A stretch of DNA of 62,013 bases, counting the filler, from Hausera hauseri (taxonomy: Eukaryota), in assembly GCA_046269625.1 (NCBI GenBank). It is 10 parts of 10 records of this genome, joined end to end, with 100 filler letters (N's around TTAATTAATTAA, not from the genome) between each part and the next. Parts side by side here need not be neighbours in the genome. Positions count along the whole stretch, not along the records: positions 55,248 to 62,013 come from JBJURY010067773.1; 9 more parts are not named here. The stretch is one strand, 5' to 3'. The notes beneath the pieces were generated by a model. The model was given only the letters and a program-made list of their open reading frames with translations. It did no database searches and was not told the DNA's origin. The position numbers and the translations under genes are program-made. Below are positions 22,620 to 62,013 of the stretch, piece by piece (positions within the stretch are counted from its first letter, which is position 1; every line of letters starts with the position of its first letter).

Positions 22620-22912
22620 ACATATGATGGATTTTGAAAAGGACGCTTACGCGGAAGCATATGTTCAGTCAAAAATACAATATCTCGGATTTTAAAATAA
22701 ATATCGTAACAACGGTACAATGATAGAAGATTTTAAAGAGAAATATCCGTTTTCACCTTTGTGTCAGCTGCAGCATACTCAACTTCTGAAAACCGGTAAT
22801 CTCAAATTGGATTTTCGTTTCCACAAGAGTTGGCTGAAACCTTCATCATGTGTGTATACGGTATATTAGATTCAACGGTGGAAATTACCAAGATTGATCA
22901 AATTTTTGCATA
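22620..22912 (+). pseudogene. Polinton major capsid protein C-terminal remnant
   Basis: MDFEKDAYAEAYV..LGF..RNNG..IEDFKEKYPF..HTQLLKTGNLKLDFRF..LAETFIMCVYGILDSTVEITK matches the Polinton MCP C-terminal pattern. Confidence 0.7.
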
Positions 22913-22919
22913 AAGAAGA

Positions 22920-28900: not shown

Positions 28901-30686
28901 TTCTGTTATTGTTTAAGTGAAGGGCTACGGCTTCTGTGTATCGTAATTTTAAGTATTAATGGTTCCATAAATTTATCGGCTATATCGTCTTCGGTAACCT
29001 TATTTATTTTTTCGATTGTGAACTCAGGCCCTGCATCTAAGTCGACGTCTGTCGAAGTTCCTGGATTATCTGACTTATTTACTATTTTGTTAGTTGCCGG
29101 AACACTCTTCTTTTGTGTCATATCAATTCGCTTTTGCGCTATAGCATACTCGTGCTCTGTTTCCGGTTTTGCTAATCCATGATATACTTCTAGTAATCTT
29201 AGCTTATCTCCGTATTCTTTTCTGGCCATTAAAATTTGTGGATTAATAGCTTCAGCCTGAGAATCTAAAATTTTTCGTAAGTCTTGTATGTCGATAATAG
29301 TACCTATATCTCCAAGAATACCATATTTTGCTTTTAAGTTTTTATTAACTAATTATACTAGTCTTATTGGGCTCATTGAATGAAACGCTACGCGGATTTG
29401 GACATGATCTTGCAATGTGTCATTCTTTACCTCAAGTAAAACAAACTAAGTTTCCATTTCTGCCTACTCTGTCGACTGCCTTCATTTACAGGTGACTTGA
29501 ATCGGTTTGTGTTTCTATTGTACTGGTTTATCAAACTTTGTGTACTACCTATATTTCGTCGACTATCATTATTTCGATTATCATCATAACGATTTCGATA
29601 GTTAGAACCTTTATAGCTTCCTTCATTTCTATCTGTATCTGAATTAGACTTATTCAAATTTCGATCATTACCATAATTGTTATTTTGACTATCTCTGTAA
29701 TCGTTATTGCTATTTCTATTCTCATAATTGCTGTTACTGTTAAATCGTCTATTATCTCTTACGCGATTATCACCGCGATTTCTACCACTGCGATCATTTT
29801 GTTCATTATTTCTGTCATTTCTATCATTGTGTTTGGCATATTTATCAAGTGCCATCTCTAAGTCCTGGGCCAACTGCAAGGTTCTCTCGAAATTTTCAGG
29901 TCTAGCTAAAATTAACTGCTTTACTAAATCTCTGGACCAAATACCATTAATCAATTGGGTCGTAATCATGACGTCCAAATCTGGAGGGTTTGCCTTTTCC
30001 GCAGCTTCACGTTCTGCGTCTGTTTTGGCCTTTGCCACATTAGCTATTCTCAGTGTACTTACATAACTATTAGCGAGTTTCTTTAATGCAAATGCAAACT
30101 GGGTTACCGACTCCCCCTTCTGTTGTACCCTATTCTGAAATACCATAAATTTCTGTTGTAGCGTTACTGTTGGCAATAATTTACGGTTTAATGCTTCTAC
30201 CAGGGAGGACCAAGATTTCTTTTAATCATTAGTGAGCTCGCCGTAAGCGTCTGCGGCTAGATTTTTGAAATATAACAACAAACGTTTAATCATTACGTCA
30301 GGAGTAAGACTAGCACCTTCTGTGTGCAACTTATAAGTTCTCAAAAATTCGTTCAATTCGTCCGGATCACCTTAGTATGCCGGTAGATTCAGAGAATCAA
30401 AAGTGAAGTGCGCTACTGGTGGGTTATCTGCTGCCATATTATTTACGTAATCTCTAAATTTACTTTATTGTCTCTGTGAACTTTAGTTTTTACAAGAGGA
30501 ATCTTAAACTTATTAGTTCGCTGAACGGCTGTTAAATTTGGATTAACTGAGTTTACTCTTGTTTCAGAAAGTGAATGTTTATCCAAGTTTTCACTATTTC
30601 TATATGTATTTCTACGCTTCTGACGTATAGGCGAGTTTTCCTTATCGTTTAGATTAAGATTCATTTTAGACATCAATATTTCTTTA
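22920..30686 (-). mobile_element. Decayed env-in-polyprotein Ty3/gypsy element: gag (~29400-30437), ~2.9-kb linker, UBL (26300-26517), AT-hook (~26100), signal, glycoprotein (23900-25620), tail, protease (~22930-23150)
   Basis: Gag FQNRVQQKGESVTQFAFALKKLA; KQKRPVGRPRK; LLTLMMLVKQIGAITV*DC; FGQAASGFLAIY; EVYALIDTGFEISY. Many stops and frameshifts. Confidence 0.85.
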
Positions 30687-38437: not shown

Positions 38438-41400
38438 CAATATTATGCACTTGTAGAATTTTAAAACGTTGAAGGTGACAGGCAATAATGGTACCTGTCA
38501 CATTGAGCAGTTCTATATTCCAAAGATTTCATTGCTAAATAGGCGAAAAGCTGGACGAAAAAATCGTCAACTACACCGAAAAAGGCAGTGGTTGGCGAAT
38601 AATAAAAATTGTCACTCTTGGTTTTATTATAACAAAGTCGAGTGACATAATTTACCTCTCTGGACGTTCATTCCTACCGACACCTGAAGCTCTAAAACAC
38701 TCTTATGCGGTAGTGAATGTAAAAAACGCGAATGATGATTATTTTTTATTTACAGTATTCTGGCGGTATTAAAATGTGACAAAGTGGACAGACATAGTAC
38801 ATATCTTCCGAGTCAGTATCGGCAGTATTTTTTCGATTTGCAATTCGACGAAAACTTGATGCCGATGAAACTAAAAACCTTTCCAACATTTGAGCGGCAT
38901 AATCCGACGCTGTCAATTAACGTGTTCCGGTATAATACAATACCCGAATAAACTCACGGTAAATTTGTTATTGTTGGAGCAGGCAGAAAAATTTTACTAC
39001 GTGGCAGTAACAAATTTGGATCGACTGTTGAACATGGATCACCATCAATTTGTCCAAAAACAGATCCGTTGTAATTGGTGTCCCACATGTATGTATGGCT
39101 TCAGATTAGAAACCACGTGAGAAAAACATGTGATGCTGTGCAGACAGAATGCATCAGGAACAACAATGTACGTCATGCAAGTCAAAAAGGAGCTGCGATT
39201 TAGTGACTGGTCTAAAACGGACAGTCCAACATATGTGATATATGCTAATATTGAGGCGATCCTACCACGGCACGACGTATACGATCAAAAACATTCTAAT
39301 TGCCGTCGGAATGTTGGTTGTCTCAATAAAAGGTGTGGTCAACCGCAGTATTACATGTTTCGCGACTGGAACTGTGTGTGATTTCTTGCATCATTTGGAA
39401 ACAATAGTTCAATCGGAGATCGCACCGTGGTATCGCAATAGCAGCACAAAATCCCTGGTTTGGACAGATGAAGATGAACACCTGACGTTTGCAGTCACAG
39501 AGGAATGTTATCTATGCCACAAAATATTACCGTTTGATGTATAAGATCGACTCGTACCTGATCACGACCATTTCATCGGTCGATACTTTGGCGCAGCATG
39601 TAATTCATGCAATTTAGCGAGGCGTGTGCGGCCATTCCTACCGTTGATCTTTCATAATTCCCGAGGTTATGATTGTAACCATATACTGAAATGGACCATC
39701 AACGGATTTTCGCACCGGGAACTGCCCATAATCCCAACAACAATGTAAAAGTTCCTGTCCCTCTCAGCACATATAAACCGGTTCTAGGTACTCTTTCTTG
39801 ATTCATTGCAATTTCTCAATGAATCATTGGCGAAGCTGTTAAATGCCTTGCCGGATGTGCCAATAACCTCAACGCAGTTCCCCACACATTGCACGCAGCA
39901 AAGGCATATTTCCATATGACTTTGCAACATCATATGAGCGACTCCGGACAACAGAGGAATTACCGCCTCGATGGACAGGCATCACAGAAGATGAATATCG
40001 GAGAGCACAAGAATCTGGGACAGAACTGGGCTTTAGAAACATGTTGGATTACATGCTTCAGTATTTTAAACTGGACGTGTACTTATTAGCCGATAAGTTC
40101 CAGGCGTTTCGAGTGAAAGCGTTGGCTGAAGATAGTCTGGAGCCACTCAACTTTTACGCAATAACCGGAATGAGTTGGAAATCAGCTCTGATGTCACTGG
40201 ATCGGGATATCGAGCTATTGCAAGACCCGGAAATGTACCGAATGTTTGATGTTTGTATTCGTGGTGGCATGACATTTGTCAACAAGCATCACGTAACCAG
40301 TGATGATACCTCATCACTGTTGTATATCGACATTAATAACCTGTGCGGCTAGGCGCTTTCGCAACCCTTGCCGTACGGTTTATTCGAATGGGTAGTCGAC
40401 AAACAGGACCTGGACACAATACTGGAAAATGTGTCGAGAGCAGACGGGACAACAGCAGAAAACAGCTCAGTAGGATACCTGATGGACGTAGATCTCGTGG
40501 TACCAGATGAGCTGCATGACTTTGGATGAACTGCCGGTCGCACCAATTAGCCAATGTCCATCGGGCTCGAAAGTGAAGAAGCTGCTTATAGCGCATGAAC
40601 CCAAGCAAAATTACATAGTTCATTGGCGTTGCTGCAATTTTACATGCAGTTGGGTGTACGCGTCACACGGCTACATCGCACAATCCGATTTGCTCAGACT
40701 CCAATATTCAAGCGTACATAGATGGAAATTCGGAGAAACGAGCCGCAGCTTGTACAAAGTTCGAAAAGGACTACTACAAGCTGAAAAACAATTCCTTTTA
40801 AGGAAAAACAGTGGAGAATCTGAAAAAGCGGCTCAATATACGCCTATGCAATATCGAAAAGCGGTTGGTCACGTATACGAGTAAGGCACAGTTTCGACGG
40901 TCAATGCACATTGCCGATGAATTGGTTTCCGTGCTTTTAAACAAAGAAGTCATTCTGGACCGGCCAAATTACAACGGACAAGTGGTATTGGACCTGAGCA
41001 AGTAGCGGATGTATGATCTGCAGTATCTCGATTTGGCACGTTACCGGTAAATATTCGGCAGCGGCGGCGGCTGCGGAAAGATCAATATAATTGCCGGTGA
41101 AACAGTTTTTTCTTGGAACTAGAAAACATCAATTTCGGACAACTACTGCAGCAAATGATGGCTGACGGATTACCGGATACGTCCAATTGCCCACAGAATC
41201 ATCCATTGTGCATCAATGCCACCACAAACAAAATCGGTTGATTCAAGGATGAAAGTGAAGGTCGGATTCAGTATCGGGAATGGGTATTTGTACGGCCAAA
41301 ATGTTAGTCTTAACTGACTGGACCGAAAATGCGCGCCAAAGGAGTTCAGTTGGCCCAGACGGAAATAAATCACGGTGATTATCGCCGTGTTATGAAGAAG

Positions 41401-41560
41401 GAGGCAATCAAGAGCTGTTGTGTCTCATACGATCAGCCGATCGATTGAGCACCAGCAGCATACGGTGACCAATACAAAAGTCGCTTTATACAATAATGTT
41501 AAGTAAGTGAGTGGGGCGGAATAAGAGTTGGGCGTACGGACATTAGCGTTTGTAATAAAA
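38438..41560 (+). pseudogene. Polinton protein-primed DNA polymerase B with inserted HNH/EndoVII domain (decayed)
   Basis: KGSGWRI; YVIYANIEA; DHDHFIGRYFGAACNSCNL; FHN..GYD; IRGGMT; YIDINNL; YYKLKNNS..GKTVEN; EWVFVRPK; many stops. Confidence 0.9.
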
Positions 41561-42170
41561 CACGCATGAATTCGGTGCAGATAGATCAATGTACTGTGAC
41601 AATTCATTGTGATCTCTGTTTTGTATAAATAATGTTTATTTTTCGTTGTTTCTGCCTTTTTTATCATTTAATTTATCTATATACATTTATATATTTTACT
41701 TAATGTGACGAGAAACAATATAAAAAATCAATAAAATTTATTAATCATAAGCTAAAATCAAAAACAAAGTCATAACAGCGTAAACTTTCCCAACTTCCAT
41801 ATTGGTGATTTAACGCCATGAAGAACCTTGTATCCTTTCAACGTCAATGTTAGATGGCCTTTAGTTCCTTCCTGTGGCAAAACTGTTTTTCTACTGCTGC
41901 TGTTTCTCCACCGTGTGAGCTGACAATTCTCGCCATATTTCGTTGAGAAAAATGGACGATATATCTCGGATATCATTACTCAACACCAAATCACTCAGTT
42001 TTTCTAATTGTGTCTTCCATTGTATCCAAATCATCGTCGATGATCTTTTTCACCAATAAACCATATTTCACCGCTTTGATTTTGACTATTTGCGTCAATG
42101 GTAATTGAATACCGTTGCGCAGATAATGTAAGTGATAATAAGCACTGTATAATCATCATTGACATTGTGA

Positions 42171-43166: not shown

Positions 43167-46100
43167 AACAACTAGTTATGGACTCAACTAAAAGCAGCAT
43201 CAAAAGAATCCCCTCAACAACCTGTTGAAAATATTAGGCCTCAACAAGTCTTGATGACTTAATCAGAAACAGTACCGAGCAGCAGCAACAGCAGCAACAG
43301 GAACAGTAGAAACAGCATCAACAACAGCAACATGAACGGTACCAACAGGAAGCTAATATTCCCAATATTACAGTCAAGTACGATCTGAACAGATCGTACG
43401 TGGATATAAAAGTGAACATGTCGGCAAAAACAACAATAACAACGCAATTGAGACGTGTTCCGCAAAATGTGCGCCACCAGTTGGAATCATAAGTGAAAAA
43501 ATTCCAACACAACTGCAAAGTGCAATACTATTCACTGGCAGAATTTGGAAATTTGGAAGGTGATGGGAAACAATAGTACTTATTACATCGAGCCGAACCG
43601 TATTCCAACGATTTTAGTGCCGACGTAGGCGAAAAGCTCGAGGAGAAAATAGCCAACTACATGGAAAGCGTAGTGGATTGCGAATTATACAAATTGTCAC
43701 CCTCGGCATTGTCATAACAAAGTCGAGTGGCATAATATATTTGTCCGGACGATTATTCACGCCGACACCTTTAGCTCTGAAGCAGTTTCTGGCCGTAGTG
43801 AATGTAAAAAATCAAACAATAAATACTGTTTTCTTTAAAGTATTCTGGCGTATTGAAATATGACCAAGTGGACAGACATAGTACATATAGTCAAAAACAG
43901 CTTCAGAAATATTTTTCCGAGTTAAATTACAATGGATGCTAGATGTCAACGAAACTAAAAACCATACCGGCCTTCGAACGGCGTAATCGGGCCCTGTCTA
44001 TCAACGTTTTCCGGTACAACTCAACAGTTGAAATACCGGTAGATGAAGAAATTTATAAGAATCCCCATGTGAACACAATCTATCGTAGTCGGAACCCAAT
44101 AGGCCGACAAATAAATTTGTTGCTGTTAGAGCAAAAGGAAAAATTCCATTACGTTGCAATGACAAATCTGGACAGACTGGTGAACATGGAACATGACCAT
44201 TTCTTCAAAAAACGGATACAGTGTAAATGGTGTCCCGTATATCTGCACGCATTCAGATCAGAAACCACATGGAAGAAACATGTGACTCTGCGCAGACGAA
44301 ATTCGTCAAGAAACATAATGTATGTCATGCCCGTCAAAAAGGAACACATGTTTACTAATTGATCAAAAACAGATAGTCCGACATACGTAGTATATGCCGA
44401 TATCGAAGCTATCTTACCACGGCACAATATATATATATGACCAAAAACATGTTTCAATCACCGTCGGTAATGTTGGTTGTCTTAATAAAAGCCGCAGGTC
44501 AACCTCAATATTATGTTTTCCACGGATGGTATTGTGTACTCTATTTCTTGCAGCAGTTGCAAACCATAGTAGAAACGGAAATCGCACAGTGGTATTGTGA
44601 TAATAGCATCAAACCTCTGATCTGAACAGATGAATATGTACGCCTCACGTTTTCAGTCACAGATGAATGTTACCTGTACCACAAAATATTTCCGTTCGAT
44701 GCACAGACACAGCTCGTGCCGAATCACGGTCATTTTACCGGTCGATATCTACGAGCCGCATGTAATTCATACAATTTGGTAAGGCATATGCGGCCATTCC
44801 AACCCGTGGTATTTCATAACTTCAGGGGTTGTGATTTTCATAATATTTTGAAATGGGCAATAAACGGATTTCCGCACTGGAAACTATCCGTAATCCCCAC
44901 TACGAAGGAGAAATACCTGTCACACTCTGCTCGTATAAATCGATTCCAGGTACGATTCCTTGATTAATTGCAATTTCTCAATGAATCATTGGCAAAGCTG
45001 GTAAATGTCTTGCCAGATGTGCCGCTAACATTGACTCAGTTCCCTGTACATATTGCGCGTAGCAAAGGCATATTCCCCTATGACTTTGCGATATTGTCCG
45101 AGCGTCTCAAGACGACAGACGAATTACCACCGCAATGGCCGGGTATCACAGAAGAACAATATCACAAAGCACAGTAGTTTTGACAGAGCTCGGGGGCAAA
45201 AACATGTTGGAGTACATGCTTTACTATTTGAAGTTGGATGTGTACCTCTTAGCCGATGTGTTTCAAATATTTCCAGCAAAAGCGTTGGCAGAAGATAGGC
45301 TAGAACCACTCAACTTTTAATCAATACCCGAATTGAGTTTGGCATCAGCTGTAATGTCACTGGATCGAGATATCGAGCTATTGCAAAACCCGGAAATATA
45401 CCGAATGTGTGATGTAGGTATTCGTGGCGGCATGACATTTGTCAACAAGCATCACGTAACTAGTGATGATACCACATCATTGTTGTATATCGACATTAAT
45501 AACCTGTACGGCTGGGTATTTTCGCAACCCTTGCTGTACGGTTCATTCGAATGGGTAGTTGACAAACAGGACCTGTACACAATACTAGAAAATCTGCCAA
45601 GAGCAGACACGGCAGAAAACGAGTCAATCGGATACCTGATGGAAGTCGATATCGTGGTATCCGATGAGCTGCATGACTTTCTGGATGAACTGCCGGTCGC
45701 ACCAATAAGCCAGTATCCACCGAACTCGAAGGTGCAGAAGTTGCTTATGACGCATGAACTAAAAATACATAGTTCATTGGCGTTTGTTGCAATTTTATGT
45801 GAAGTTGGGTGTACGCGTCACACAGCTGCATCGCGCAATGCGATTTGCAAAGGCTCCGATATTCAAAGGGTATATCGGTCGGAATTCGAAAAAACAAGCT
45901 GCATCTTGTACGAAGTTTAAAAAAGACTAATAGAAACTGAAAAACAATTCTCTCTACAGCAAAACCGTAGAAAATCTGAAAAGGCGACTTAATTTACGCC
46001 TATGCAATAGCAAAAAGTGGTTGGCCACGTACACAAGTAAGGCGCAGTTCAGGCGATCAATACACATTGCCGATGGCTTGGTTGCCGTGCTTTTATACAG

Positions 46101-46685
46101 GGAAGAAGTCGTACTAGACTGCCCAAGTTATATAGGACAAGTGGTATTGGATCTGAGCAAGTTTCGGATGTGTGAGCTGCAGTATCGCGATTTGGCACGA
46201 TAGCGACAAATGTTTGGTGGCGGCGGCGGATGCAGGATCAGTATAATTGCCCGTAAAAGATAGTTTTTCTTGGAAATAGGAAACTTCAATCACGAACAAA
46301 TACTGCGGCAAATGATGGCAGACGGATTACTGGACAGAATTATCCATTGTACAGCAGCGCTATCACAAACAAAATCAGCTGCTTCAGGGATAAAAGTGAA
46401 GGTCGGATTCAGTATTGGGAATGAGTATTTCTGCGGCCAAAATGTTATAGCCTTTTAACTGACTGTGGACAGAAAATGCGAGCCAAAGGAGTTCATTTGG
46501 TCCAGACGGAAATAAACCACGGTGATTATCGTCAAGTCTGTTGTGTCACAAACGATCATCCGATCAGTTAAGCACCAGTTGTATACGGTGACGAATAGAA
46601 AAGATGCTTTACCTTGCAATGATGATAGGTGCAAGTGGGTGGGGCGGAATAAGAGTTGGGCGTACGGACATTGGTGTTTGGAATA
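43167..46685 (+). pseudogene. Second Polinton pPolB copy (decayed)
   Basis: Colinear with 38438-41560: VYADIEA, HFTGRYLRAACNSYNL, FHNFRGCD, KGIFPYD, YIDINNLYG, KLKNNSLYSKT. Confidence 0.9.
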
Positions 46686-47614
46686 AAATACGCACACGCA
46701 CAGGTATGAATTCGGTGCTAATGATACAAACAGATCAAAGTGACAATTCATTATGATCTGTGTGTTTTGTATAAATAATGTATATTGTTCGTTGTTTTTG
46801 TCTTTTGTTTTATAATCATTTAATTTATCTCTATATATTTATATATTTAACTAAATGTAACGAGAAACAGTATAAATAATAAAATCAATAACATTTATTA
46901 ATCACAAGCTAAAATAAAAAACAAAGTAAATCAAATCAGCGTAAACTTTACCAGCTTCCATATTGGTGATTTAAAGCCGTGCAGATCCTCGTATCCTTTC
47001 AACTTCAATGTTAGATAGCCTTTGGCGCCTTCGGGTGGCAAAACTGTCACTGCTGCTGCTGTTGCTGTTTCGTCGCCATGTGAACAGACCTTGGCTATTT
47101 TGAGAGATTCGCGGAACTGTCACCTGCTGAATTGTTTTCCAAAGACATTTTAAAGACATACGTGATATGAAATTGCATCCATACTTATAGCAAATTTGTT
47201 TATACCGGTTTGTTTTTATTTTAAACAATAGACATTTACCTTGTGAGTATTGTCTCATATCACAATGATACATACTAGTTAAAATTACCTTCACGTCACA
47301 GAAGCTCATGACAAGGTTTCGTTCCGTTATGGAAGAAGTCATTCGTAATAAATGTGTACAATTTCCATTATAGCACATTTACATTCTGGACACTGGTGGG
47401 TTACATTGGTGGAACACATTTGACAAACAACGAGATTGCCGCACATTAAGAATACCGTATCCACTTTTCTTTGTTTACATAGTACACACATAAGCTGACA
47501 GTCTCGTACTTTGTNNNNNNNNNNNNNNNNNNNNNNNNNNNNNNNNNNNNNNNNNNNNTTAATTAATTAANNNNNNNNNNNNNNNNNNNNNNNNNNNNNN
47601 NNNNNNNNNNNNNN

Positions 47615-50150
47615 AGTCTGAGATGTTCTTTGTGTTGTTTGGGCGATGCCGATGCGACTAGTATGTCATCAATGTATGGATATACAAATGGCAAGTCTGA
47701 AAGAACTGAATCAATGTGCCGTTGGAAACTTTGTGCTGCGTTCTTTAAACCGAATGGCATGAATGCGTATTCGAAAAGACCAAAAGGTGTTATCATAGTC
47801 GTTTTTTAGATGTCTTCTGGCGCTACCGGTATTTGGTTGTAGGCTTTTTCGAGATCTGTAGTCGAATAGATTGTCGTCTTGTGTAAGGAATGTAATATAT
47901 CCTTAATCAAAGGTATGGGATAAGCGTACATAGTAGTGACGTTATTAAGTTGGCGATAATCGCGGCATGGACGGAATGTTCCATCGTTTTTCCGGACGAC
48001 GTGCAGTGCTGTTGTCCAAGGTGATTTGGAGCGTTTTATTATGCCAGCTTGTTCGAGTGCAGAGAATTCCGCTTAGACTCCCTGTCTGCGGCGTGGTGAA
48101 AACTGGCGGAGTTTCTGCCTAAGGGGCCTAAGATTTTCTGTGATGATATGATGAAACGTAGTGTTAGCCGGTCGAAATTCTGGATCTTTTTTAATTGTAT
48201 AGAAACAAGATTTGACTAAGTATTGTTGCATTTCCTGGCTAAGTGTCGTAAAGGCTGTTATTGTTATGGCAGTGGACAGATTGGATTTAGTATGAGAAAT
48301 GGTAGAAATCGGGCCACATAAATCGGACTGCAACAGAAAAGTAGGATTGTTTATATTGGCTTTATCAGTAAGGTTTTTATTCGCATTGGTTAATGGTTTC
48401 TTCAATATTGATTTTATATTTGAGATAGGCTGCGAGAAGGGTTGGTTATTTGTAGGGGTCGGCTTTGTTAAACGGCTTTTACTGATTAGACGTTGTCTAC
48501 AATCTACAAGGAGGTTGTAGATGGATAAGAAATTAGACCCAAGTATAAGAGATTGTGTGTCGGCAACGATGAATGTCCAATTGAAAATGTCGGAGAATGG
48601 TGTTAAAGTGAATAAAACTATGGACGTGCCGAAAATGCGTAATGCTTGGCCGTTAGCTGTATACAATTTTGTGTTGGAGGGAGATATGGATAGTGTTTTG
48701 ATGGATGGTGGTAATAAAGAAACAGCTGCACCGGAGTCAATTAGGAAGTTGATTAATCCATTAGGATTGGAGGTTAAAGATGCTTTTAATGTAAAAACGG
48801 CATAAGTACGGCTATCGTGATGAAAACGTTTGCCTGTGCCAGCATGTGCCAAAACATTTGGCAGCTTTATGAGTTTTTTGGAGGCACGGGATTTATGTCG
48901 TTGGAAAATGTAGGTCGTTTTGAATTAGATCAGTTAACGAAAATGCAAACTGTAACGCAGTTATGTGCTTTAGAATTTAATTTGTTATGGTAAATGCAGA
49001 TAATGTCGGGTCGTTTAAAATGAGGAGCATAAAATCTGCTACCTAGGTAGCACTTAGTTAAGTTGTCTTTAAATTTGGTGTGGTAGTAACACACCATTGA
49101 TCGTGTAGGTGACCCTTCATGCTTCTAATTTTTAGATGAAGTGCGGCTATGGTTCGTATCAAAACGATTTTGTCTAGGCATAATCAAAGCTTCGATTTTT
49201 GACGTGAGTGCAGAAATTGCTTGATGTATGTTGGCGTTTTCGGCACGTAAAGAATTTATCTGAGTTCAGATTAGCTATGTCGCTAGCTTGTTGAGTTATT
49301 AGTGCTTGTAACGTAACGGCTATTAATGGGGCTGTATGTGCATGTAATATCTGGTGGCTTTTGTCAGCCAGCTGTGCTAGTTTTGTAGTGATAATGCGTC
49401 CTCTACTATTGTAAATAGTGCGCGTATGTCTCTTAATAAAGACAGTAGGAAATACCTGCGTAGTAAATAGGCGTTGTTTGCCTGATTAACGCTAAGAGTG
49501 CTTAATTGGGTTAGTGAGGTTTGAAGAAATTCTGAGGGCTTTAATGTGCCTATGGTATTGTCACTGAAATATTTGTGGATAATGTTATCCATAGACGATT
49601 CAGTGATTTTTAAAATAGAGTTAAAAGTGTTTTATATGGATCACTACTTTGGAAAATTTCTGATAAATTAGAAAGCTGCGACTTAATGTTAGAAGGCAAG
49701 AGTATAAGCAAACTGTTTGCTTTAAGAAACAAGTCAACAATATTATTTGACTTCAACCAAGCCGCATGAAAGTCCAACCACGTCCTGCTGGAGTTTTGAT
49801 TGTCGACGAAGTATTCTACGCAAGGTAGATTTACAGCAGACGACGGAGGTAAAGGTGAATTTAACGGTACACTTATAGTGGGAATGTCGGCAAAATCTTG
49901 TTGGTCCTTAGATGTTTTTGGATCAGATCCACCTAGCAGGTGAGTGTGCAGTAACTATAGGTGTCGAAGAGGAGCGAGTGTAGTTAGTGATAATGTCTGG
50001 TGCAAAAAAATCCGTTAAAACTAAAACGAAAATTAATCGGGAATATTTCTCGTTGGAGTACGCTAAACAAATTTGCGGTAGTTGCAGTTTGATATATGTA
50101 GTATGTATGTGTGTCTGTTTTCAAGCAACAAAGTAAGGAAGATAACGTTT
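47615..50150 (-). mobile_element. CsRn1-like Ty3/gypsy element (decayed): UBL-gag (48900-50150), protease (48500-48800), RT (47615-48170)
   Basis: LHTHLLGG|SDP; SSRTWLDFH; IGTLKPSEFL; two CxYH..C motifs; FLIDSGAAVSLLP; MPFGLKNAAQSFQR; YIDDIL. Confidence 0.88.
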
Positions 50151-50506: not shown

Positions 50507-53500
50507 TTATCCGACCTTTTTTAAAATCCTAAGTCCAGTGTCTGTAGAATTTTTGTAGTTCGAAAAATTAGACTGATTATCATTGTTGTATTTACAACTA
50601 TTTTCCATTTGAGGAGAATGTTCTGATGTTAAGTTATACGTTCTTTGATGTATACTTCTTTCCGATCCTGGAGCTAAAGGGAATGATTTTAAGGTACTGT
50701 GTTGTTGTCCCAAAGGTGATTTATGTGCTGTCATGGACGTTTTAACTTCCCAAGGTTCTTTAATTACGAAGTGAATCTGATCGAAATTAGTTTTCCCTTG
50801 AATCATATGATTTTCAGATAACTGACGATCAGTTGACGATAACAGAGGTTTTGTGCAATTGTCAGCAATAATGGTACTGCTAATATTAGAATTTTGGTTC
50901 GCTTCAGAAAGACTTGGAAACTGACTGGAACTATAAATTCCGTTATGAAAAATCTTATCCGGATGCTTCAGACGAGTATGGATTTGAGAACTGACACTTA
51001 CGATACCGGCAGCCGCAACAGTGGCAAAGTCTGAACATTTAACGGATTTGGAAAATCCGTATTGCAGACTATTATTATTGGTGTTACTTGACGAAGAAAC
51101 TGAAAGACCAAATTTATTGTAACTACTGACTTTGCTATTGACTTTTCCATTATATCGGATAATGGGAAGAGGCTTATTTGGTGTTTTATTAAATTCACTG
51201 TCAAAGGAATTATTCGTGATAGTTTCATGCAATGCTTTCTGATTTAATGTTTTAGATGAATAAGGCTCAGACTCTTGAATAACATCACTTCCAGAAACCT
51301 TTCCTTCTACTAGATCACAAATGAAATCTTTGGCTTTTGAAACAGCCTCCGGAGTACCCTTCAAATGTACAATACGTTCATCAAATTCGTTAGCGTTGCT
51401 GTCAATATCTATATGAGCTCCACTGATGTGACGTATAGCATTTACCACAGAACCACCTTGAACGATTACTTTCCATATATCTTTTTTATTCACCGGAATA
51501 TCCAACTTCTTTTTATTGTTGCCTATTTTTTGCCAGTTAGTATGCACGCTATCTTCGATTTTCGAAGAGTTATTTTTAGTAAAATTTATCTGAATCCAAG
51601 CATTATTAGATTTGGTATTTAATTTCGACTGTTGTACATCATTATCATTCAAGGAGTTACACAAAATTTTCGGTGTGGTATATGAGCTGTTGGTGTGCAA
51701 TTCATCTTTCTTATTCTTTAAAATAACACCATTAATCAAATCGGTGGTCTTTTGTTCATCAAATGCAAATTTAATTTTATTCTTATGGATATCTTCCTTT
51801 GCTTTAACCTGATTATCTGATACTGACATTGAGATGTTTGGATTTATATTCTCATTATTGCCAATCAATAAGATATCAGAATCTTCTGAAAATTTTTTGG
51901 CATTCTCTTCGCACAATTTTGTAGAAATATCCATAGAACATTCATTTCTGATATCACTTTTTAGTACATCAATTTCCTTTTCCTATTGTTTTGCTTTTTT
52001 CTTTGCTTTCTTTTCCCTCTTTTTTGTTTGTTTAATCTCCTTTTGTTCTTTAGCTTTTTTTCTTCCTCAACTTGTTTCAGTAAATCCTTAGCATTTTTAG
52101 CAGCTTCAAATTTTTTTCGTTCTTTTGCTTTTAAAATTATTCCTTTACACGTTTCGCACTTTTTGAGTAAATCTTTTTCGACATCCTTTAACGATTTTAA
52201 ATGTTTACTACAGTCGTGCTCGGAGGGAAATTGTGTAACATATTTTACGAGTTCCTCGACAACATACACGTGTCCTTTTTTGAATGCCGACATTAGACAC
52301 GTCATTTTGCGATTGTCGGAGCTGTTGACATCAGCACGATAGTCGATGAGAAGTTTCACAACATCTATATAGCCGCCTAAGTATTTGTCATGATAATCTA
52401 TCATGATAAGCAGTACCTGTGCATGCCAGCCATAATGGAGTGTCACCTTTTTTATTGCGTGCATCGACGACAGCTCCACTAAATTTCATTAAGAACAGTA
52501 AAGAAAATATTTGACTACTTCTGAAGCAATAATTCCACGAATTTTGTGTGGCCTTTCTCCGCGGCAATGATTAAGGCTGTTTCACGAGTAGCGGCCACTG
52601 GTGTAGCGTTAACTTCAGCACCCGAATTTATCAGAATCCTTCCAACTTCCACATGACCTTGAGATGCAGCTTCCATTAACGGAGTTAATCCGCTCTTTGC
52701 GCGATGTTCGATAGACGCTCGTCGTTCAATTAAAAGCGATACAATCTCACTACGACCCTGGAAACATGCCAGTGTCAAAGCTGTATTGCGGTTTGTTTCA
52801 ATTTGTGAATTGATATCCGACCCATTCTCCAACAGAACACGAACCGCCTCTACGTGCCCATTCATTGAAGCCAACATCAGGGGGCTTATTCCCAGCTTTG
52901 AATTCGTTCGTGAGTTGATCTCAGCGCCCTTCTTCAACAGAAATTTGATTATGTCCACGTAACCTCCGGATGCTGCCAAACTTAATGGAGTGTAATCGGA
53001 TATATTGCGGTGTTCGATCATGGCATTCCTGTTGACGAGTTCTTCAACTATTTCCAATTTGCCGTTGGCACAAGCCAATGACAATGCGGTGTCTTTTGTT
53101 CGTTCAACCATAGCCTCGATGTCAGCACCGGAATCTAACATGAATTTCACAACTTCTAAATGGCCATTCAGAACTGACACATGCAACGGAGTTTGGGATT
53201 TTTTGTCCCGATGTTCCAACTTGGCACCGCTATTGATCAATAACTTCACAACCTCGATATGCCCGCCTGAACATGCCAACGACAATGGTGATTCCTGAAG
53301 AGATTCCGTACAGACGTTGACATTAAGTTTCTTCTTGTTAGCAGTATTACTACTGCTGACGCTATGTTTATTGCAACTGTCGTGGGGAGTAGATATACCT
53401 TGTTTGTTATACGGCGGAACTAAACAATTCTCAAGTTCGAGATCGGACTCATAGTCGGGATCATCGTTTTCTTCATTTTCCATTTCTTCAACGGCTTCCA

Positions 53501-53825
53501 GATTGTCAACATTGCAGCTACCGTCACCAACAATTGCACCTGATTTCCGAATGGATATACTATCACCATTATCAATGTTTATCTTTGGCATGAATTCCAG
53601 ATGATAATTTGGCGATAGAAAATCGTGCTTGCTGCTGCAGTTGTGGGCAAGATGGCAGACATGAGAGGAAGAAATAGTAGTGTTGGTAAGTACGTCGTTG
53701 GCGTTATTGTTTTTGTGCATCTCATTCAGCATAACATGTTGAAAAATTGCACCTTTGTCATCGGTAGTGAGACTGTTTTTATCAGTGAAATTAAAATTTG
53801 GATTTGAACTGCTTTGAAGGGAATC
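50507..53825 (-). CDS. mask: Ankyrin-repeat and KH-domain protein (Mask/ANKHD1/ANKRD17), 5'-partial; second ankyrin block + KH; at least one frameshift, possibly a pseudogene
   Basis: Diagnostic ERTKDTALSLAC, SKLGISPLMLASMNGH, ETNRNTALTLACFQGR, VTQFPS and NAIRHISGAHIDID. Splicing out GT-AG introns 52479-52518 and 52377-52416 restores NGAVVDARNKKGDTPLWLACTGGYIDVV. Confidence 0.9.
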
Positions 53826-53905
53826 CTGAATAGGGAGTTATTATATCTAATCATTTATGATATTGTTGGAAATGCAAACTATAAAGTATCACAAAATACT
53901 AAGTA

Positions 53906-55247: not shown

Positions 55248-58200
55248 AACTTTACATGTGTTGGATCATAATTATCCGTTTCATTTAAGTAATGTGTGTC
55301 TATATACTCATTGGGAGGTATAAAATGTGATTGTTCCATGGGGTATTCACTCCATTTCCTCATTTGTGGAATATTTGATAACAATATTCTCTTTTTGCTT
55401 CGGGCGGTAATTAGACTCCATGTCCTTTTAGTATTTTCTGCTGGTTTAAATTTCCTCGCGTTTATCTTCTTTGCTGGAGGTTTATCCACATCATTATTAT
55501 CGTCTTCCTCATTCTTGTTTTTGTTTTTCTGGTTCCATTCAGCGTCCTCTTTAATCAAAAAGCAGCTAGCTATGGATGGAATCAATACATAAATGATTTT
55601 CCATGTGCACCCAGCAGCTTGTTTAATACCATATCCCTTGGTTATCACGGTCAGAATCGCTTTTATAAAGACAAAGATGTAGTAAAATCCTAACCATCGA
55701 GAATTAAACTGACCAAACCACATATACCATCCCCATGCAGTTGCAAATATATCCTTAGCTATTTTCTTTGCTTAATCAAGTCCCATCAAGTTTTTCCAGT
55801 TAGCTTTCCGAGTATGATCAGCAAACATTTTCATTGCCATCTTTGTTAAAACTTTCTGTCTCTGTTGAGGTAACATCATCATTCGTCTATGATTTTCCAT
55901 ATCTTGTTCAGAATACACACCCATTTTTACTAGATCTGTGAAAGGCTTGTACGTTTGTTCAGTTTTCAAATTGATTTAACTAATCCTCCGAGCTGAAGTA
56001 ATCTGCTCCTTTTTGGGCATCCTTATCCACAAATTGTCGCTTAATCGAAATGCTGGTGACATAGTATATGTACAATTTTTATGTACATATTGTTCCTCTG
56101 TCGGATCGAATAGTATCCGTGTAATTGGTTGCAAGGAACGCGGCTTTTCCTTGTACCAAATAGGTAACTCCATGGTACAGTCAGTTGTTAATCTTAGTTT
56201 GACAGCTACTTTTGTACACTCGACGGTTACAAGCGTTTCACCCATTGTTCGAGCGAACTTCCCTTCTGCATCGGGTGATTCGGCCGGATCTTTTATTATT
56301 CCGTCGGTTATCGCTGACAAATATATCCGGTTTCTAATTATCTCTGTTCAATTTACAATCGTTTAATATTATCTCGCGATACATATCATAAATGTTTTGC
56401 TGAAAGTGATAAATAAAATCAATCTTGTTATCGAAATAGAGGTGAAGTTTCATTTCCGATTTGTCAATCTTCCTCTTAGCTTTTGCCATTTCTGTTGTGG
56501 ATAAGTATATCCCTTTATCATATGTTCAAAATACTGTGTGGTCACATCTAGTGTCACGTTCTAGTTTAAATCTCATTCCGTCTTGAGGATTTGCTTAATA
56601 TACTATGCTGGGAGTCTCAATCATATGCGATACTCGGTCTAGTCTACTCTTAGATATTTCTTTGTACATTCGTCCTTTTGTTTAATTAAACCTTCCCGTT
56701 TTTAGTACAGCTAATTGACACTGATCCCTATCAACTTCGTATGATATAATTGATTCACCAGTGTCACATTCTTTCTTATAGTAATCACATTCAGGGAATG
56801 TCATCATCTTCCGCGAAGATACTTCAAAGAGGGCATCGTATTCTCTCAACTCGACTTGATAATGTTCGATGGCCACTATATTATCCAAGATTTCACCATT
56901 GATATTGTAGGACTCACCCTTACAGTATCCCGTTTTATCAACTGTTCCAGCCACAAAAATTCTTTTATTAATATTTCCTTTCTGAGCTTTCAATCGAATA
57001 TTGCCAATATTAATCTGCTTTGTCACAAAAGCCTCTGTGCACATTCGTTTCCTTATAGGAATTGGCTCGAACGGAATAGTTGGTTCAGCTATCGCTGAGT
57101 TTCGGTACCAATATCCGCAAATAGAATGAAAGAGATTTTTTCGAATAAAGCATTCTTTCACTTTTGTTTTCACAAACTCTGACTCTTGATAAACGTAGTA
57201 TTCTTTTTCCGATATTGTAGTTAATGACGCTGGATTGGTAAAGGGACATTTTTCTAGGTCTAATCAGGAATATATTGGACTTTCCTTAGCTTGACTACAA
57301 TCATAAGCAATGATTGAAAATGCTTTTGGCATCAGGCTAAACAGGAATATAAGTATAACATTAATTAGCCTTGATAAATCGAAATCTGGTTGTAGGTTTC
57401 GTTGGGTCTCTGATTGTTAGGGTGGACGATATTCTATTCGTTGTTGTGTAATTGGAGCCTATTCATGTATTGCTGTATGAACCAAACTAGTGATTCATCC
57501 ACATCTACATTTTACCCATCCTTCGACATTGGCCTTTAACGCTCTTGTAGCAATTTCTATATTTCTCTATCACTTCCTGGTTAGGATTTACGCCATTCAT
57601 CGCCATTATCTTATACAAGAGATATGATATTGCTGTCATGATTTTATTTCGGGATATGCCTGTCCCCATCATTCTAGATGATATATCTCTTTCCTGGATT
57701 TCATTTATCCTCTCATCTGTAGGGATATCTGCATATTGTTCACTAATCTTTGAGACTTCATGCCTTATAACTTGAATTGGTGAATCCGGTATTTGCAGAT
57801 TAATATTAAACTCAACGAATGCGTTGTGCATTCTTGCTAACAAGGTTTGTAGTAATGTTGTCAGTGATACATTATCTACTTCATTCATCTTCCGTTGTTA
57901 GCAATCTTCGAACGACTTCGTCATCTCTGGCTTTCCTGCCTTTCAACTGATAAAGTTTCCTCATTCCTTTTGGTCTGCCACGGTTTCTTTTCTGTTTGTA
58001 TTTGCTCTGATATAGAAATGTTCACTCCCGTTTCTATTTACCAAGCCTCATGCTGATGTTCGATTTCTTGTTTCTTTTCGTCTAACATCAGTAATAATTT
58101 CATCAATTATTTCTTGTTCAAACTGTCTATAAGTAATACACAGGGTTGTATCGGTTTCCCAAATACCTACTTCATATAAAGTTTAATAATCCATCAACCT

Positions 58201-59868
58201 TCGCCCGTAGAAGCGTAACTCTAATTCTCCTTGAGACTTGGTTATTTCATTGATTTTGTTTTAGTGTAACAATTGTATCCAACGATTTCATCCTCAGAAC
58301 ATGAAAGTCCTGGTTATACTGTTGGAGAGTAACCATTACTTCAAAGTTTTCTCCGACTGTCCTCATTCTATCAGGGTACCGATAAATTATATATCGTACG
58401 ACATTCTTGTATGGATTTGTGCCAGAAGCATATATTAACAAGTTCAATAAATTAAAAAACTGTTGATGACTGATTGTTGGCGACAGTAACATGGACAGAT
58501 CTTGTCTAAACCGTGTTCCATCAATTAGTTCTTGATTGGCATAGCTGGATATATTCCGAACTATTTCTACGTCATCCTGGTCTGAATCCACAGGTGAAGA
58601 CTCATAACTTGGGGATTTTTCCTTTGTTTTCTTTTTCCTCATTCTTTTTACCTTCGCTTTGGGTTCACTCTCTCCGCGTGACTCATGCTTCACTTCCAGA
58701 AGGTAAGTTCAGTTCCGGTGTCTTCAATTCCTCTTCTTGTAACAAAGGTTTATCTTTTTTTGACCCTTTTCTTCTCAATATCCGATTCTGATGCGGGGTC
58801 TTTAAAGCCTTCCAACAGGAGCAATGATTAAACTTCCATCGTTCACTTTCTGTCTCCTCTCGCAAATTTGTTGCTCCTTTAATTCAAGTTATAACTTTTA
58901 ATTCGGCAATTTTATCCTCATATTCCATTGTGTTGGTTTTAATTTCTTTTAATTTAGATCTGATCTTTTGTTGTAATTTTTCAATTGTTCCTTCATGCTC
59001 TGTATCTGTAGTTTCATGTTCATTATCCGCATCAGATATATTACCGACTATCTCAACATCCTTTTTCTTCTGACTTGACTGTCTTTGATTAGGGCAAATA
59101 CGAGCCATATGCCCATGTTTCAGATAACAAGCATAATGGCTGTCTGTTCTGATTAACCGTTAGTTTTCTCGCTGCAGATTTTTGAGGTTGGTCTTGTTGC
59201 CATGCAACCTTCTTCTGTTGTTGTTCCTTTTGATTGATGTTTATAAAATGGCTTTTGAAAACTTCTCTTCGCCTGGGGATTTTTCATCTTTTGATTATCA
59301 ACACTAGGAGGCTTTTTGATACTTTCCTATCTTTCATAGTTAACTTCAATTTTTCTCTCCTTACTGACTGCTTCTTCGTGTCGCGATCGGCAACGATATA
59401 ATTTTGTATTTCCTTAGTAACATCGATGCGACCTTTTCCTGATCGGTCTACCAAGAGTCTTTCTTTCAGGGCGTCCTTAACGCTAGCCCAATCAACTTTG
59501 TCATCATCCGTAATTTCAGCATAAGCAGCAAGTGCTATTCCTTTAAGATGTAAGGGAAGACGTTGGATCCTAAGCTCATCTGACCATGCGAAACTTTGTG
59601 AATACATTTGATATTGCATTAAAAACTAACTATAAAATTGGACGGATTTTCCTTCGAACTTATCCATAAGGAGGACCATTGTACCAGTCGTACTTGAACC
59701 GGTTCATATCCCAGAGCTAGACATTGGATTCGTCTCTATGTAAGTAATTGGTTCAATCAAGGGGTTCTCATCTGATTCAGAACTACTCCTTGCTGAATCA
59801 GTGCGTGAAATTGTAGTATTAGCGTTAACTCTACTTAGGCCAGTGTGCTTCATCACTCGGAGCACCAC
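55248..59868 (-). mobile_element. Decayed env-in-polyprotein Ty3/gypsy element: gag (~59100-59700), UBL (~58130-58350), AT-hook (~57970), helical domain, signal, glycoprotein (55560-57380), tail
   Basis: WSDELRIQRLPLHLKGIAL; HGHMARICP; LRFYGRRLMDY; KRNRGRPKG; TAISYLLYKI; SLMPKAFSIIAYDC; CTMELPI..PITRIL; WFGQ..FYYIFVFI. Protein-level similarity to contig 1. Confidence 0.88.
59853..59867 (-). promoter_or_regulatory. Primer-binding site TGGTGCTCCGAGTGA (elongator tRNA-Met-like)
   Basis: Lies 1 nt inside the LTR end ...CTTATCA. Resembles the complement of the metazoan tRNA-Met(e) 3' end. Confidence 0.7.
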
Positions 59869-60153
59869 TGATAAGTTTATAGTCTAAGATTTGTTGGTCT
59901 TACGACCTTATACTTATACTCTCTATTCAGAAGTTTGAATTCCCTCCCTGTCTCAAGCTTAACTTACTTTATAAGGGTAATCAGCAACCTGTGGACTTGC
60001 CGATGTCTGAATTTTACGTTGTTTAATTAGGCTTAATGAGTGAGCTTCGTCAGGAGGTACACTTCGTCCCCCCTATTAGATTTTAGACAACCGTCCGGAA
60101 GGGACGGTATACCAAATAGGGCCCTGAAATTTATTATTACTTTCCTTATTACA
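59869..60153 (-). repeat. Putative 5' LTR (285 bp)
   Basis: Minus strand reads TGTAATAAG...CTTATCA (TG..CA with short inverted termini), adjacent to the PBS. The second LTR is not in the window, so the outer boundary is inferred. Confidence 0.6.
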
Positions 60154-61234
60154 ATATATAACCTTACTTAACCAAATTACTCTTCTAGAATTAATCAATA
60201 TCAAAAAGATGATAAACTAACAACAGAAATATTTAATCATACAAATACAATGAAGAAAAAGGAATAAAATCATAAAATATAAATATGAACAAAGCCATAC
60301 TCACATCCGTCGATCATTTGTAACATAAGATAGTTCGTTATAATTACTGTCAGAAATGAAGGAATACAGTAGTATTTATATCATTTGAGTTCACACAGGA
60401 TAATGAAAAGATAATAAAAATACATTAAAGTAAGGTACTCACAAACAAAAATCAATTATCCAAAATTGACAATAAATGAAAATCAATTTAAATAATTAAA
60501 ATAATCCACAAATGCAACATGTCTACTTTAAAAATCAATCATAATTTATTCACTTAATATCGGTTCTCAAATGGAGTTTATTTGCTCTGGATTTCGATCA
60601 GTTAGTTTATTTTCTTTCGATTTAGGTTAGTTTATTTACTTTTAATTTCGATAAATTCGGACATCTCCCTCAGATGATTCTGTCTTCAGCATCAGGGGAT
60701 AGACTTCTACGACTCCATTCGAGTCTTGGTAATCGACTGATTTGATATGGAGACTTCTTCCTTTCTTTTTAATTATTTTCCTTAGGGTAATAGTTTCTGA
60801 TTTTGGAATTCTATTTTTATTCTTTGATGTTTTCGTTAAGTCGACAAAGATGGATTCAGAAGAAATGGAAGTGGAGAGCAGCAGTGATGTGGGACAATCG
60901 GGGATGGAGGAGCCATCTGAGAGTGGAATGGCTATGGAGTCTTCAGAAGCAATGTCTGCAGACAGCAGTGATGCTGCTGCCTCCCACACGCAGGCCCCAG
61001 AGTCAGACTGTCATGTAGGACAGAGCTCTGAAGGACTTGTGGTACGTTTGCAAGTCGTCAGTCTGCAACAACGTTTTGTGTTTCGTTAGACAAAGTCAAC
61101 AGAACATTCTTTGTGTGAAACTTTGCTTTTCGATAAAAGAAGAACCCAAGGAACCTCTGAGAGGAACTGCCTGTACCAAATGTTACTCAGGGTTATTAAA
61201 TTATGGACTTTTCACAATCTGATTGTTTTTTGGA

Positions 61235-61377
61235 AACTAGGAAAAAAAGACGTTTTCATTGGTCCTGACATTTGGAAACACATGACAGACGACATATTTG
61301 AAAACAAAATGGAAAACATTGAAAGAGCAGCTTGGACATGTTTAAAAGAAGTTAGTGATGGAGGTTGGAGGTTATAG
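61235..61377 (+). pseudogene. DNA-transposase remnant (Chapaev3-like)
   Basis: KKDVFIGPDIWKHMTDDIFENKMENIERAAWTCLKEV resembles the K.GIF.GPQIR..D..F...E..AW motif. Confidence 0.5.
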
Positions 61378-61879
61378 CCAGGAATAAAAGCATATAAAAA
61401 AGAACTTAATATTTTCAGTACCAGGAACCATTACAACAAAGGAAAAAAATACATGTATTATAATTTATTATACATGACTTTTCCACGTATATATTACTAG
61501 TAAATATGTTTTGGCTGTAGAGGCAGGCTCTGGTAGCTTTTTCCATTTCATTGGGAGTTTTGTCAAGGCTTTACATGAGTTATTACACTGCCATGCCAAC
61601 ATAATTGTTGTAAGACTTTTTATTGTTAAATCACAATATGCATGACATGCAAAACGTTTGGATAATATTTGACAAAGTATCGAATTATACAATATATACA
61701 GGACCACTTTAAAATATGTAATCTTAGAACAAAAGTACAAAATACATGAATTATTGTAGGATGCACTTTAATTACTTTATAGATAATTTAGTAAAACATT
61801 ACAAAATGTTCCTTATAAGCAAAGTACATTTACAACTCAATCTATTCACCATGAATTGCAAGTACTAAACATGCACAAT

Positions 61880-62013
61880 CTTCTTCTTTCGGCTAATCCC
61901 GATTAGGGGTCGACACAGCGGATCAATTATGATCCACATCATTGGTTTTGGCACATGTTTTACACCGGATGCCCTTCCTGACGCAACCCCCCCTAGGAGG
62001 AAACCATTTTATA
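61880..62013 (-). mobile_element. RTE-related SINE / non-autonomous retroelement 3' part
   Basis: Minus strand ends ...GCCGAAAGAAGAAGA and carries GGTTGCGTCAGGAAGGGCATCCGGTGTAAAA, a motif typical of RTE-associated repeats. Confidence 0.5.

Follow-up and report, generated by a model that had tools for sequence, protein, structure and literature searches.

The window analysed here, 62,013 nucleotides of assembly GCA_046269625.1 of Hausera hauseri, consists of ten contigs joined by N-spacers, and the feature under study lies on the minus strand of contig 10 (JBJURY010067773.1, positions 55248-62013). The source genome is AT-rich and is that of an animal. In our opinion, contig 10 very probably carries the 5' two thirds of a dead, env-bearing Ty3/Gypsy long terminal repeat (LTR) retroelement copy of the Burro type, the Burro elements being giant Gypsy elements of planarians. 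Judging by the predicted proteins of relatives, intact members read gag, env and pol in the same frame. It is highly likely that such members use one open reading frame (ORF) to encode Gag, a cassette (helix bundle, ubiquitin-like domain (UBL), GRP motif and Bcl-2-like domain), followed by an internal signal, a fusion glycoprotein of class III type and lastly Pol, and that the product is processed. The gag-env-pol layout with UBL and BCL2 is already published for Burro. Of interest here are how compact the element is, its non-canonical Bcl-2 domain and, tentatively, a LEDGF-like domain.

On the minus strand, contig 10 runs from a candidate LTR and primer-binding site (PBS) through capsid, knuckle and charged region to a helical domain, the UBL and the GRP motif, and on to a second helical domain, a signal and a glycoprotein. 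From the capsid on, coordinates come from a frameshift-aware alignment to intact relatives, and identities are to related proteins (P numbers).

59869-60153, minus strand: candidate 5' LTR without a partner, about 285 nt from TG to CA, with a TATA-like box near 59973
59856-59867, minus strand: candidate PBS, 1 nt past the CA, tRNA-Met(CAU)-like with 2/12 mismatches
59306-59733, minus strand: broken capsid region of gag that has lost about 45 codons; 73% identity to P0005, which matches Ty3_capsid at E 0.004
59088-59139, minus strand: CCHC zinc-knuckle remnant; P0002 and P0005 have the knuckle whole (zf-CCHC at E 2.5e-4 and 5e-5, respectively)
58568-59075, minus strand: charged, probably coiled region, then a basic low-complexity linker; first 80 residues 72% identical to P0002/P0005
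58346-58567, minus strand: conserved 75-residue helical domain (the helix bundle); 65% to P0002; best profile match, a weak one, the LEDGF/p75 integrase-binding domain (IBD)
58111-58342, minus strand: UBL, integral; 76% to P0002
57941-57982, minus strand: basic RGRP (GRP) motif, AT-hook-like or a nuclear localisation signal; placed by alignment
57477-57876, minus strand: Bcl-2-like domain (the TLLARMH/TAISYLLYKI domain), broken in this copy; 83% to P0002
57312-57374, minus strand: internal signal sequence preceding the glycoprotein; 43% to P0002
55742-57311, minus strand: Env ectodomain, broken, of the PF24664 Monjiviricetes (chuvirus/mononegavirus-like) fusion glycoprotein family; 79% to P0002
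55248-55741, minus strand: transmembrane region of Env with its cytoplasmic tail, in a frame open as far as the contig reaches; hydrophobic segments at 55741-55529

Two other contigs of the window carry related copies.

[quoted passage not shown]
22875-30455 (contig 5), minus strand: gag, knuckle, insert of about 2.7 kb, UBL, env and protease remnant (RVP E 0.058); a further decayed family

The original prediction placed LTR, PBS, gag, linker and env colinearly on one strand with no pol in between, and both the alignment to relatives and the pol queries bear this out: four of the five pol queries had no match on contig 10 at E<=1, and the fifth gave a lone 16-residue match (E 0.19) inside the start of gag, not between gag and env. 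Among the parts it named, capsid and knuckle (65-73% identity to P0005/P0002), UBL, signal and glycoprotein (Env fragments against PF24664, E 5e-11 and 9e-12) stand, while the LTR is reduced to a single unpaired candidate and the PBS to a site with 2/12 mismatches to tRNA 12-mers. A helical domain that it did not mention sits just before the UBL; the one that it found common to contigs 1 and 10 is indeed shared, and we now read it as Bcl-2-like. From the start of the LTR to the Env transmembrane region the copy measures 4.6 kb. It is a fossil, with about 15 frameshifts (a count that omits one at P0002's own end, absent from the contig 1 alignment), 13 stops and the capsid deletion of about 45 codons.

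Contig 10 had also been taken to supply the 5' half missing from contig 1. By homology it does so, but the two belong to related, different families: the glycoproteins share 44% identity (C-terminal half), and the DNA of the two contigs gives just two short matches, at 68-74%. On contig 1 the fusion glycoprotein (PF24664, residues 470-1091, E 1e-90) lies upstream of the protease. The contig 10 tail can be aligned with contig 1 as far as residue 1154, some 60 residues upstream of the contig 1 protease, and ends about 30 codons before the point where the protease stands there.

Whether gag shares a frame with env-pol was left undecidable by the decayed copies, and here intact relatives point to a single frame. 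Among 4,675 candidates the contig 1 protein retrieved three proteins, including P0002, whose residues 5 to 1124 of 1130 match contig 10 in order, at 65-86% identity over most domains and 43% over the signal. P0002 is an uninterrupted protein from gag into env, and P0003 is one chain from gag to two protease domains. In a representative search the best 150 of 1,381 matches were listed and 30 of those were scanned with Pfam; among these 30, P0010, P0019 and P0028 have gag and env in one chain, and P0019 continues through integrase with the cassette missing. A search for long relatives gave 41 matches, six of which (P0177-P0182; 3,700-4,057 aa) combine in a single chain gag with helix bundle and UBL, env, and the Pol domains PR, RT, RNase H and integrase; most of the others are repeat-laden gene models without this env. 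These six are 53-57% identical in RT-RNase H and represent clusters of 4-21 member sequences each. Thus gag and env stand in a single protein in P0002, P0003, P0010, P0019, P0028 and P0177-P0182. Since P0002 and contig 1 overlap and P0177-P0182 are unbroken, a single gag-env-pol ORF is the probable state of intact elements. The finding of pol between gag and env would have spoken against the proposed order, and all six full-length relatives place env between gag and pol. Their Pol order is PR-RT-RNase H-integrase, and contig 1 follows it to the start of integrase; contig 10 itself holds no pol. A quick tree built from 48 RT-RNase H rows places contig 1 together with nine env-before-pol relatives (SH-aLRT 84).

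We considered whether gag might instead be a separate ORF, with cassette-env-pol expressed by programmed frameshift, read-through or splicing. Six frame changes do lie between capsid and helix bundle on contig 10, the closest gag relative, P0005 (81% to P0002), ends right before the helix bundle, the env-pol proteins P0004, P0006 and P0011 begin past gag, and extra spliced products are known for Cer1 (PMC10309623). However, all six frame-change positions are read through in P0005 and P0002, and P0002 goes on into env; the break-off points of the shortened relatives are scattered, as expected from decay or from contig ends; and six multi-member clusters run unbroken from gag to integrase. We regard this arrangement as very unlikely. 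It is also quite improbable that the contig 10 family is non-autonomous, a gag-cassette-env element without pol that is mobilised in trans. Such a family would agree with the lack of pol on contig 10 and with P0002 ending inside env, and contig 6, where gag, a UBL-like and a Bcl-2-like part are followed by 800 nt lacking env, suggests that shortened derivatives may exist. Against it, the contig 10 tail is open to the contig end, remains alignable with contig 1, and shows neither a stop nor an LTR-like end. That a gag remnant merely lies beside an unrelated chuvirus-like endogenous viral element is next to inconceivable: arthropod genomes are reported to hold many free insertions of chuvirus-like glycoproteins (PMC7642597, PMC10084718), but the single protein P0002 matches contig 10 in order over the whole stretch, and the layout recurs on contigs 1 and 5.

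Several observations nevertheless weigh against a single processed ORF. One ORF gives Gag, Env and Pol in a 1:1:1 ratio, which does not account for excess Gag. P0005, P0018, P0034, P0037 and P0054 stop before env, in five different places, and P0002 is without about 60 residues that are present in P0005 and partly in contig 10. The relatives were seen as predicted proteins, so spliced gene models are conceivable. Pol and a second LTR were not seen on contig 10 itself. The tree was made by a quick fallback method rather than by a careful search. Finally, contig 1 has a second hydrophobic segment beyond the Env transmembrane helix, and if this segment crosses the membrane, the topology would differ from the one that we propose below.

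The TLLARMH/TAISYLLYKI domain is, as far as alignments and a model can tell, Bcl-2-like but without the canonical BH1 tryptophan and glycine. In an alignment of 11 rows, nine match PF00452 (best E 2e-5; contig 1 domain alone, 0.002). Compared with PDB, the profile gives 133 matches, the best 60 of which are all Bcl-xL or Bcl-2 (best E 2e-4), with the BH1-to-BH2 region aligned. P0179, held out of the profile, matches it at E 3e-10 and Pfam at 0.005. The domain model has six helices (pLDDT 72.5), and in a library of viral structures viral Bcl-2 proteins take ranks 1, 2 and 6 (best E 0.1). A BH2-type GW is found in 9/11 rows. In the ten rows covering BH1, neither the W nor the G is kept (0/10 each), while the arginine position has K or R in 10/10; P0179 retains the glycine. 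The NWGR motif in BH1 of pro-survival members is thus not found.

This assignment has its counterweights. Three of the alignment rows were picked following a Bcl-2 match, and every Bcl-2 score is under the Pfam gathering cut-off of 31.4 bits. All 44 rows listed by Foldseek are of the Bcl-2 family, but the best E is just 0.019; in VIA-align the top Z (6.6) belongs to an unrelated chain, and 22 of 50 rows have the Bcl-2 fold. The domain scored in only five of the 13 UBL-bearing proteins that reach its position. Searched against a large protein set, the alignment profile found among 8,000 scored candidates only P0014, already in the alignment. A single-sequence AlphaFold run of the 428-residue linker gave no usable model (pLDDT 37.6), and ESM Atlas no usable match for the cassette or the helix bundle. 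Compared with the Bcl-2 family (Bcl-xL, BAK, KsBcl-2, vaccinia B14/A52), the likeness lies in the aligned BH1-BH2 region, the six-helix model and the membrane anchor downstream; the difference lies in the replaced BH1 W and G, the embedding in a Gag-Env-Pol polyprotein and the scores below the Pfam cut-off.

Given this domain, one may suppose that the element encodes a canonical pro-survival protein comparable to the viral Bcl-2 proteins found in DNA viruses, which would bind the BH3 helices of Bax/Bak and protect germ or stem cells. This alternative concerns function only. The BH2-type GW, the basic residue at the BH1 arginine and the membrane anchor that follows would suit it, and the Burro1 RING/BIR region is reported to shield planarian stem cells from caspase-mediated death (as cited in PMC13465017). 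We find it doubtful, given that no BH1 row keeps W or G, P0179 and its glycine aside, and that the domain is absent or unrecognisable in eight of the 13 relatives. The BH1 glycine is a residue whose loss disables Bcl-2/Bcl-xL, and those poxviral proteins of Bcl-2 fold that have no BH1 motif act on signalling instead.

The helix bundle stands directly before the UBL in 14 of the 31 tabulated proteins. We had taken it to resemble the LEDGF integrase-binding domain, and it was tested for this reason. An earlier profile of seven rows, UBL included, had no LEDGF match. With a profile of 12 rows, LEDGF chains occupy ranks 1-22 of 47 PDB matches, weakly (best E 0.004), over 46 of 75 positions, and the next unrelated match is at E 0.3. 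None of the 12 single rows matches the Pfam LEDGF or TFIIS-N model, and an NCBIfam scan of the bundle gave nothing meaningful. All in all, a LEDGF-IBD/TFIIS-N type of fold seems to us rather the better guess on these profile matches. LEDGF carries AT-hooks, and its IBD has the TFIIS N-terminal fold. The profile alignment and the GRP motif that follows the bundle liken it to LEDGF/p75 (PSIP1), while here the element itself encodes the domain, as a fusion with a UBL, a PWWP domain is not seen, and E is only 0.004. Literature searches, with the primary Burro papers and Sacco 2022 outside their reach, found no LEDGF-like domain in such an element.

The UBL itself matches Pfam ubiquitin weakly (E 0.03 for P0002, 0.005 for P0018 and, at best, 4e-5 for P0179). 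A role as cleaved ubiquitin is rejected, as Gly-Gly near its end occurs in only 1/17 UBL matches. Helix bundle and UBL occur in tandem duplicate in P0182 and, by eye, in P0179; because they are duplicated as a unit, they appear to travel together. The AT-hook originally predicted corresponds to a basic RGRP motif, which is present and may be either an AT-hook or a nuclear signal; such a GRP motif precedes env or the protein end in 9 of 24 proteins scanned.

How a single polyprotein of this kind could work is suggested by its hydrophobic segments, which flank the ectodomain: the internal signal before it and a transmembrane segment after it. The site could be located in 20 relatives, and 17 of these have small residues at -3/-1 of the signal. 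A sequence search of the PDB found nothing related to Env, whose class is assigned by sequence family. What is generally known of processing by signal peptidase and retroviral protease leads us to infer the following. The cytosolic Gag-cassette would be made first, and the internal signal would then send Env into the endoplasmic reticulum, where signal peptidase would cut Env free. The signal would stay on the C-terminus of the Gag-cassette as a membrane anchor. Such a retained anchor would tie Gag to the Env-bearing membrane and give the Bcl-2-like domain the tail anchor typical of the Bcl-2 family. Because the predicted signal cut lies 46-79 residues past the BH2 GW in the seven relatives measured, the Bcl-2-like domain would be tail-anchored. 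The Env transmembrane helix would return the chain to the cytosol, and the element protease would there free PR, RT, RNase H and integrase.

As to the roles of the cassette, we can only offer a tentative view, to which we would give somewhat less than even weight: it may be an optional cargo for host manipulation, in which the Bcl-2-like domain, having no canonical NWGR groove, would damp cell death or stress signalling, the UBL would serve docking or turnover, and the helix bundle would be an interaction domain of TFIIS-N/LEDGF-IBD type. Lentiviruses borrow LEDGF-type integration targeting from the host. A bolder, unlikely reading is that these elements encode a LEDGF-like module of their own: the helix bundle, with UBL and AT-hook-like motif, would be released, bind the element integrase or host elongation factors and steer integration into chromatin, while the membrane-anchored non-canonical Bcl-2 protein would keep the cell alive, the cassette being a modular host-control unit that has spread beyond Burro.

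The relatives form a graded series. P0010, P0019 and P0028 have no cassette; P0003, P0008, P0177, P0178, P0180 and P0181 have helix bundle and UBL; contigs 1 and 10, P0002 and P0179 have the full cassette with the Bcl-2-like domain. The existence of compact versions means that the accessory domains are small enough for one-at-a-time study, called difficult in a 2019 review. A putative Bcl-2 fold that lacks NWGR, and a LEDGF-like domain that the element may encode, bear on how retroelements handle cell death and choose integration sites.

The comparison with known elements starts with Burro/GYPSM1, for which the available part of PMC6431247 describes one ORF with Gag, UBL, BCL2-like domain, mononegavirus-like Env and PR-RT-RH-IN; env in frame between gag and pol, together with UBL and BCL2, is described there as unique to the giant planarian elements. 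The likeness extends to Gag with CCHC, a ubiquitin/SUMO-like and a BCL2-like domain, the in-frame Env and the PR-RT-RH-IN that follows, and ankyrin repeats, a Burro feature, are also present in P0179 (with two knuckles). The Burro ORF is 4,873-5,140 aa long in an element of >30 kb, whereas the full-length relatives here have 3,700-4,057 aa, and contigs 1 and 10 add up by arithmetic to roughly 2,800-2,900 aa to the end of integrase. Burro has 2-3 knuckles; contig 10 has one knuckle and a candidate LTR of only about 285 nt. No MATH, BIR, AIR1, Smc or ankyrin domain was found by Pfam in P0001, P0002 and P0005, nor seen in the window copies. No named Burro sequence occurs among the 41 long-relative matches, and the likeness is drawn from the description. 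Hence we call the contig 10 element a compact Burro-like variant and do not file it as Burro: the core order agrees, size and extra domains do not. P0183 (4,902 aa, F-type env), Burro-like by length, was ruled out as a duplicated insect-type model.

The same part of the Burro review names neither a LEDGF-IBD-like domain nor a second membrane protein past integrase (PMC6431247). In P0177-P0182, P0004 and P0012 the same chain continues beyond integrase into a second signal/ectodomain/transmembrane protein of unknown family. On contig 2, RNase H-integrase remnants (13502-11860) are followed by ORFs (10736-12030, minus strand) that end in a hydrophobic helix and look similar to this post-integrase protein of relatives; they gave no meaningful Pfam match. 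P0003, P0004, P0008, P0177, P0178, P0180 and P0181 have two to four aspartyl-protease-like domains, some past integrase, where contig 1 has one. A conserved segment of 90 residues stands between PR and RT, and its profile gave no dUTPase match in PDB.

GAG-ENV-POL errantiviruses with HSV/gB-type env were described by Chary and Hayashi in Nematoda, Bryozoa and Platyhelminthes (PMC13524379). Within the portion of that paper at hand, they resemble our element in Gypsy pol, a chuvirus-like/gB-type env between gag and pol and, as a candidate here, a tRNA PBS, but are intact and mostly multi-copy. The contig 10 copy is dead and does not share their intact ORFs in near-identical copies. In-frame fusion, ubiquitin, Bcl and Burro occur zero times in that portion. 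The Anakin elements of mosquitoes likewise have an env captured from a chuvirus-like virus, but are BEL/Pao rather than Gypsy, and no UBL/Bcl-2 cassette is reported for them in the available parts of PMC7642597, PMC12440569 and PMC13524379. Troyka was ruled out by its CG termini and lack of env, as given in the accessible part of PMC12440569.

The candidate LTR runs from TG at 60153 to CA at 59870-59869, and near 60100 the G+C content per 100 nt rises from 17-32% to 39-43%. Its 5' boundary is uncertain, and the window contains no second copy of it, the best other match being 18 nt at E 0.1. The contig stops short of the element's 3' end. Of the 3'-end 12-mers in supplementary file 1 of PMC13524379, two Met_CAU ones, from other animals, and one labelled 'others' differ from the candidate PBS at 2/12 bases; two mismatches are within the PBS limit used in that study. 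No tRNA genes were found in the window.

In the decayed relative on contig 6 (32565-37547, plus strand), gag and knuckles are joined by a RING-finger fragment (Pfam E 0.002), which looks PCGF/BMI1-like, and by parts that are UBL-like, AT-hook-like and Bcl-2-like. After the Bcl-2-like part come a stop and short tandem repeats, and no env is seen in the last 800 nt; contig 6 is possibly an env-less derivative. P0018, too, ends just past its Bcl-2-like domain. On contig 5 the insert of about 2.7 kb between knuckle and UBL is coding-like and unexplained. Contigs 2 (6287-8220, plus strand) and 5 (25558-27457, minus strand) have 1.9 kb in common at 81% identity, a UBL region of the third family.

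The remaining contigs bear other repeats and a gene. Contigs 7 (38438-41907) and 8 (43523-47066) hold two decayed copies of a 3.5-kb element, 74-78% identical. Their motifs look like those of a Polinton/adintovirus-type protein-primed DNA polymerase, an identity for which fragment searches against Pfam and PDB gave no confirmation. Contig 3 (13973-18363) is entirely a 15-nt tandem array, a minus-strand frame of which matches pentapeptide-repeat/SV2 luminal domain models. Contig 9 has on the minus strand (50507-53837) an ankyrin-repeat and KH gene with introns of about 40 nt, presumably Mask/ANKHD1-like, for which the PDB search was uninformative. Downstream of this gene, at 47615-49954, lies a decayed Gypsy gag-PR-RT related to contig 4, positions 21685-22515.

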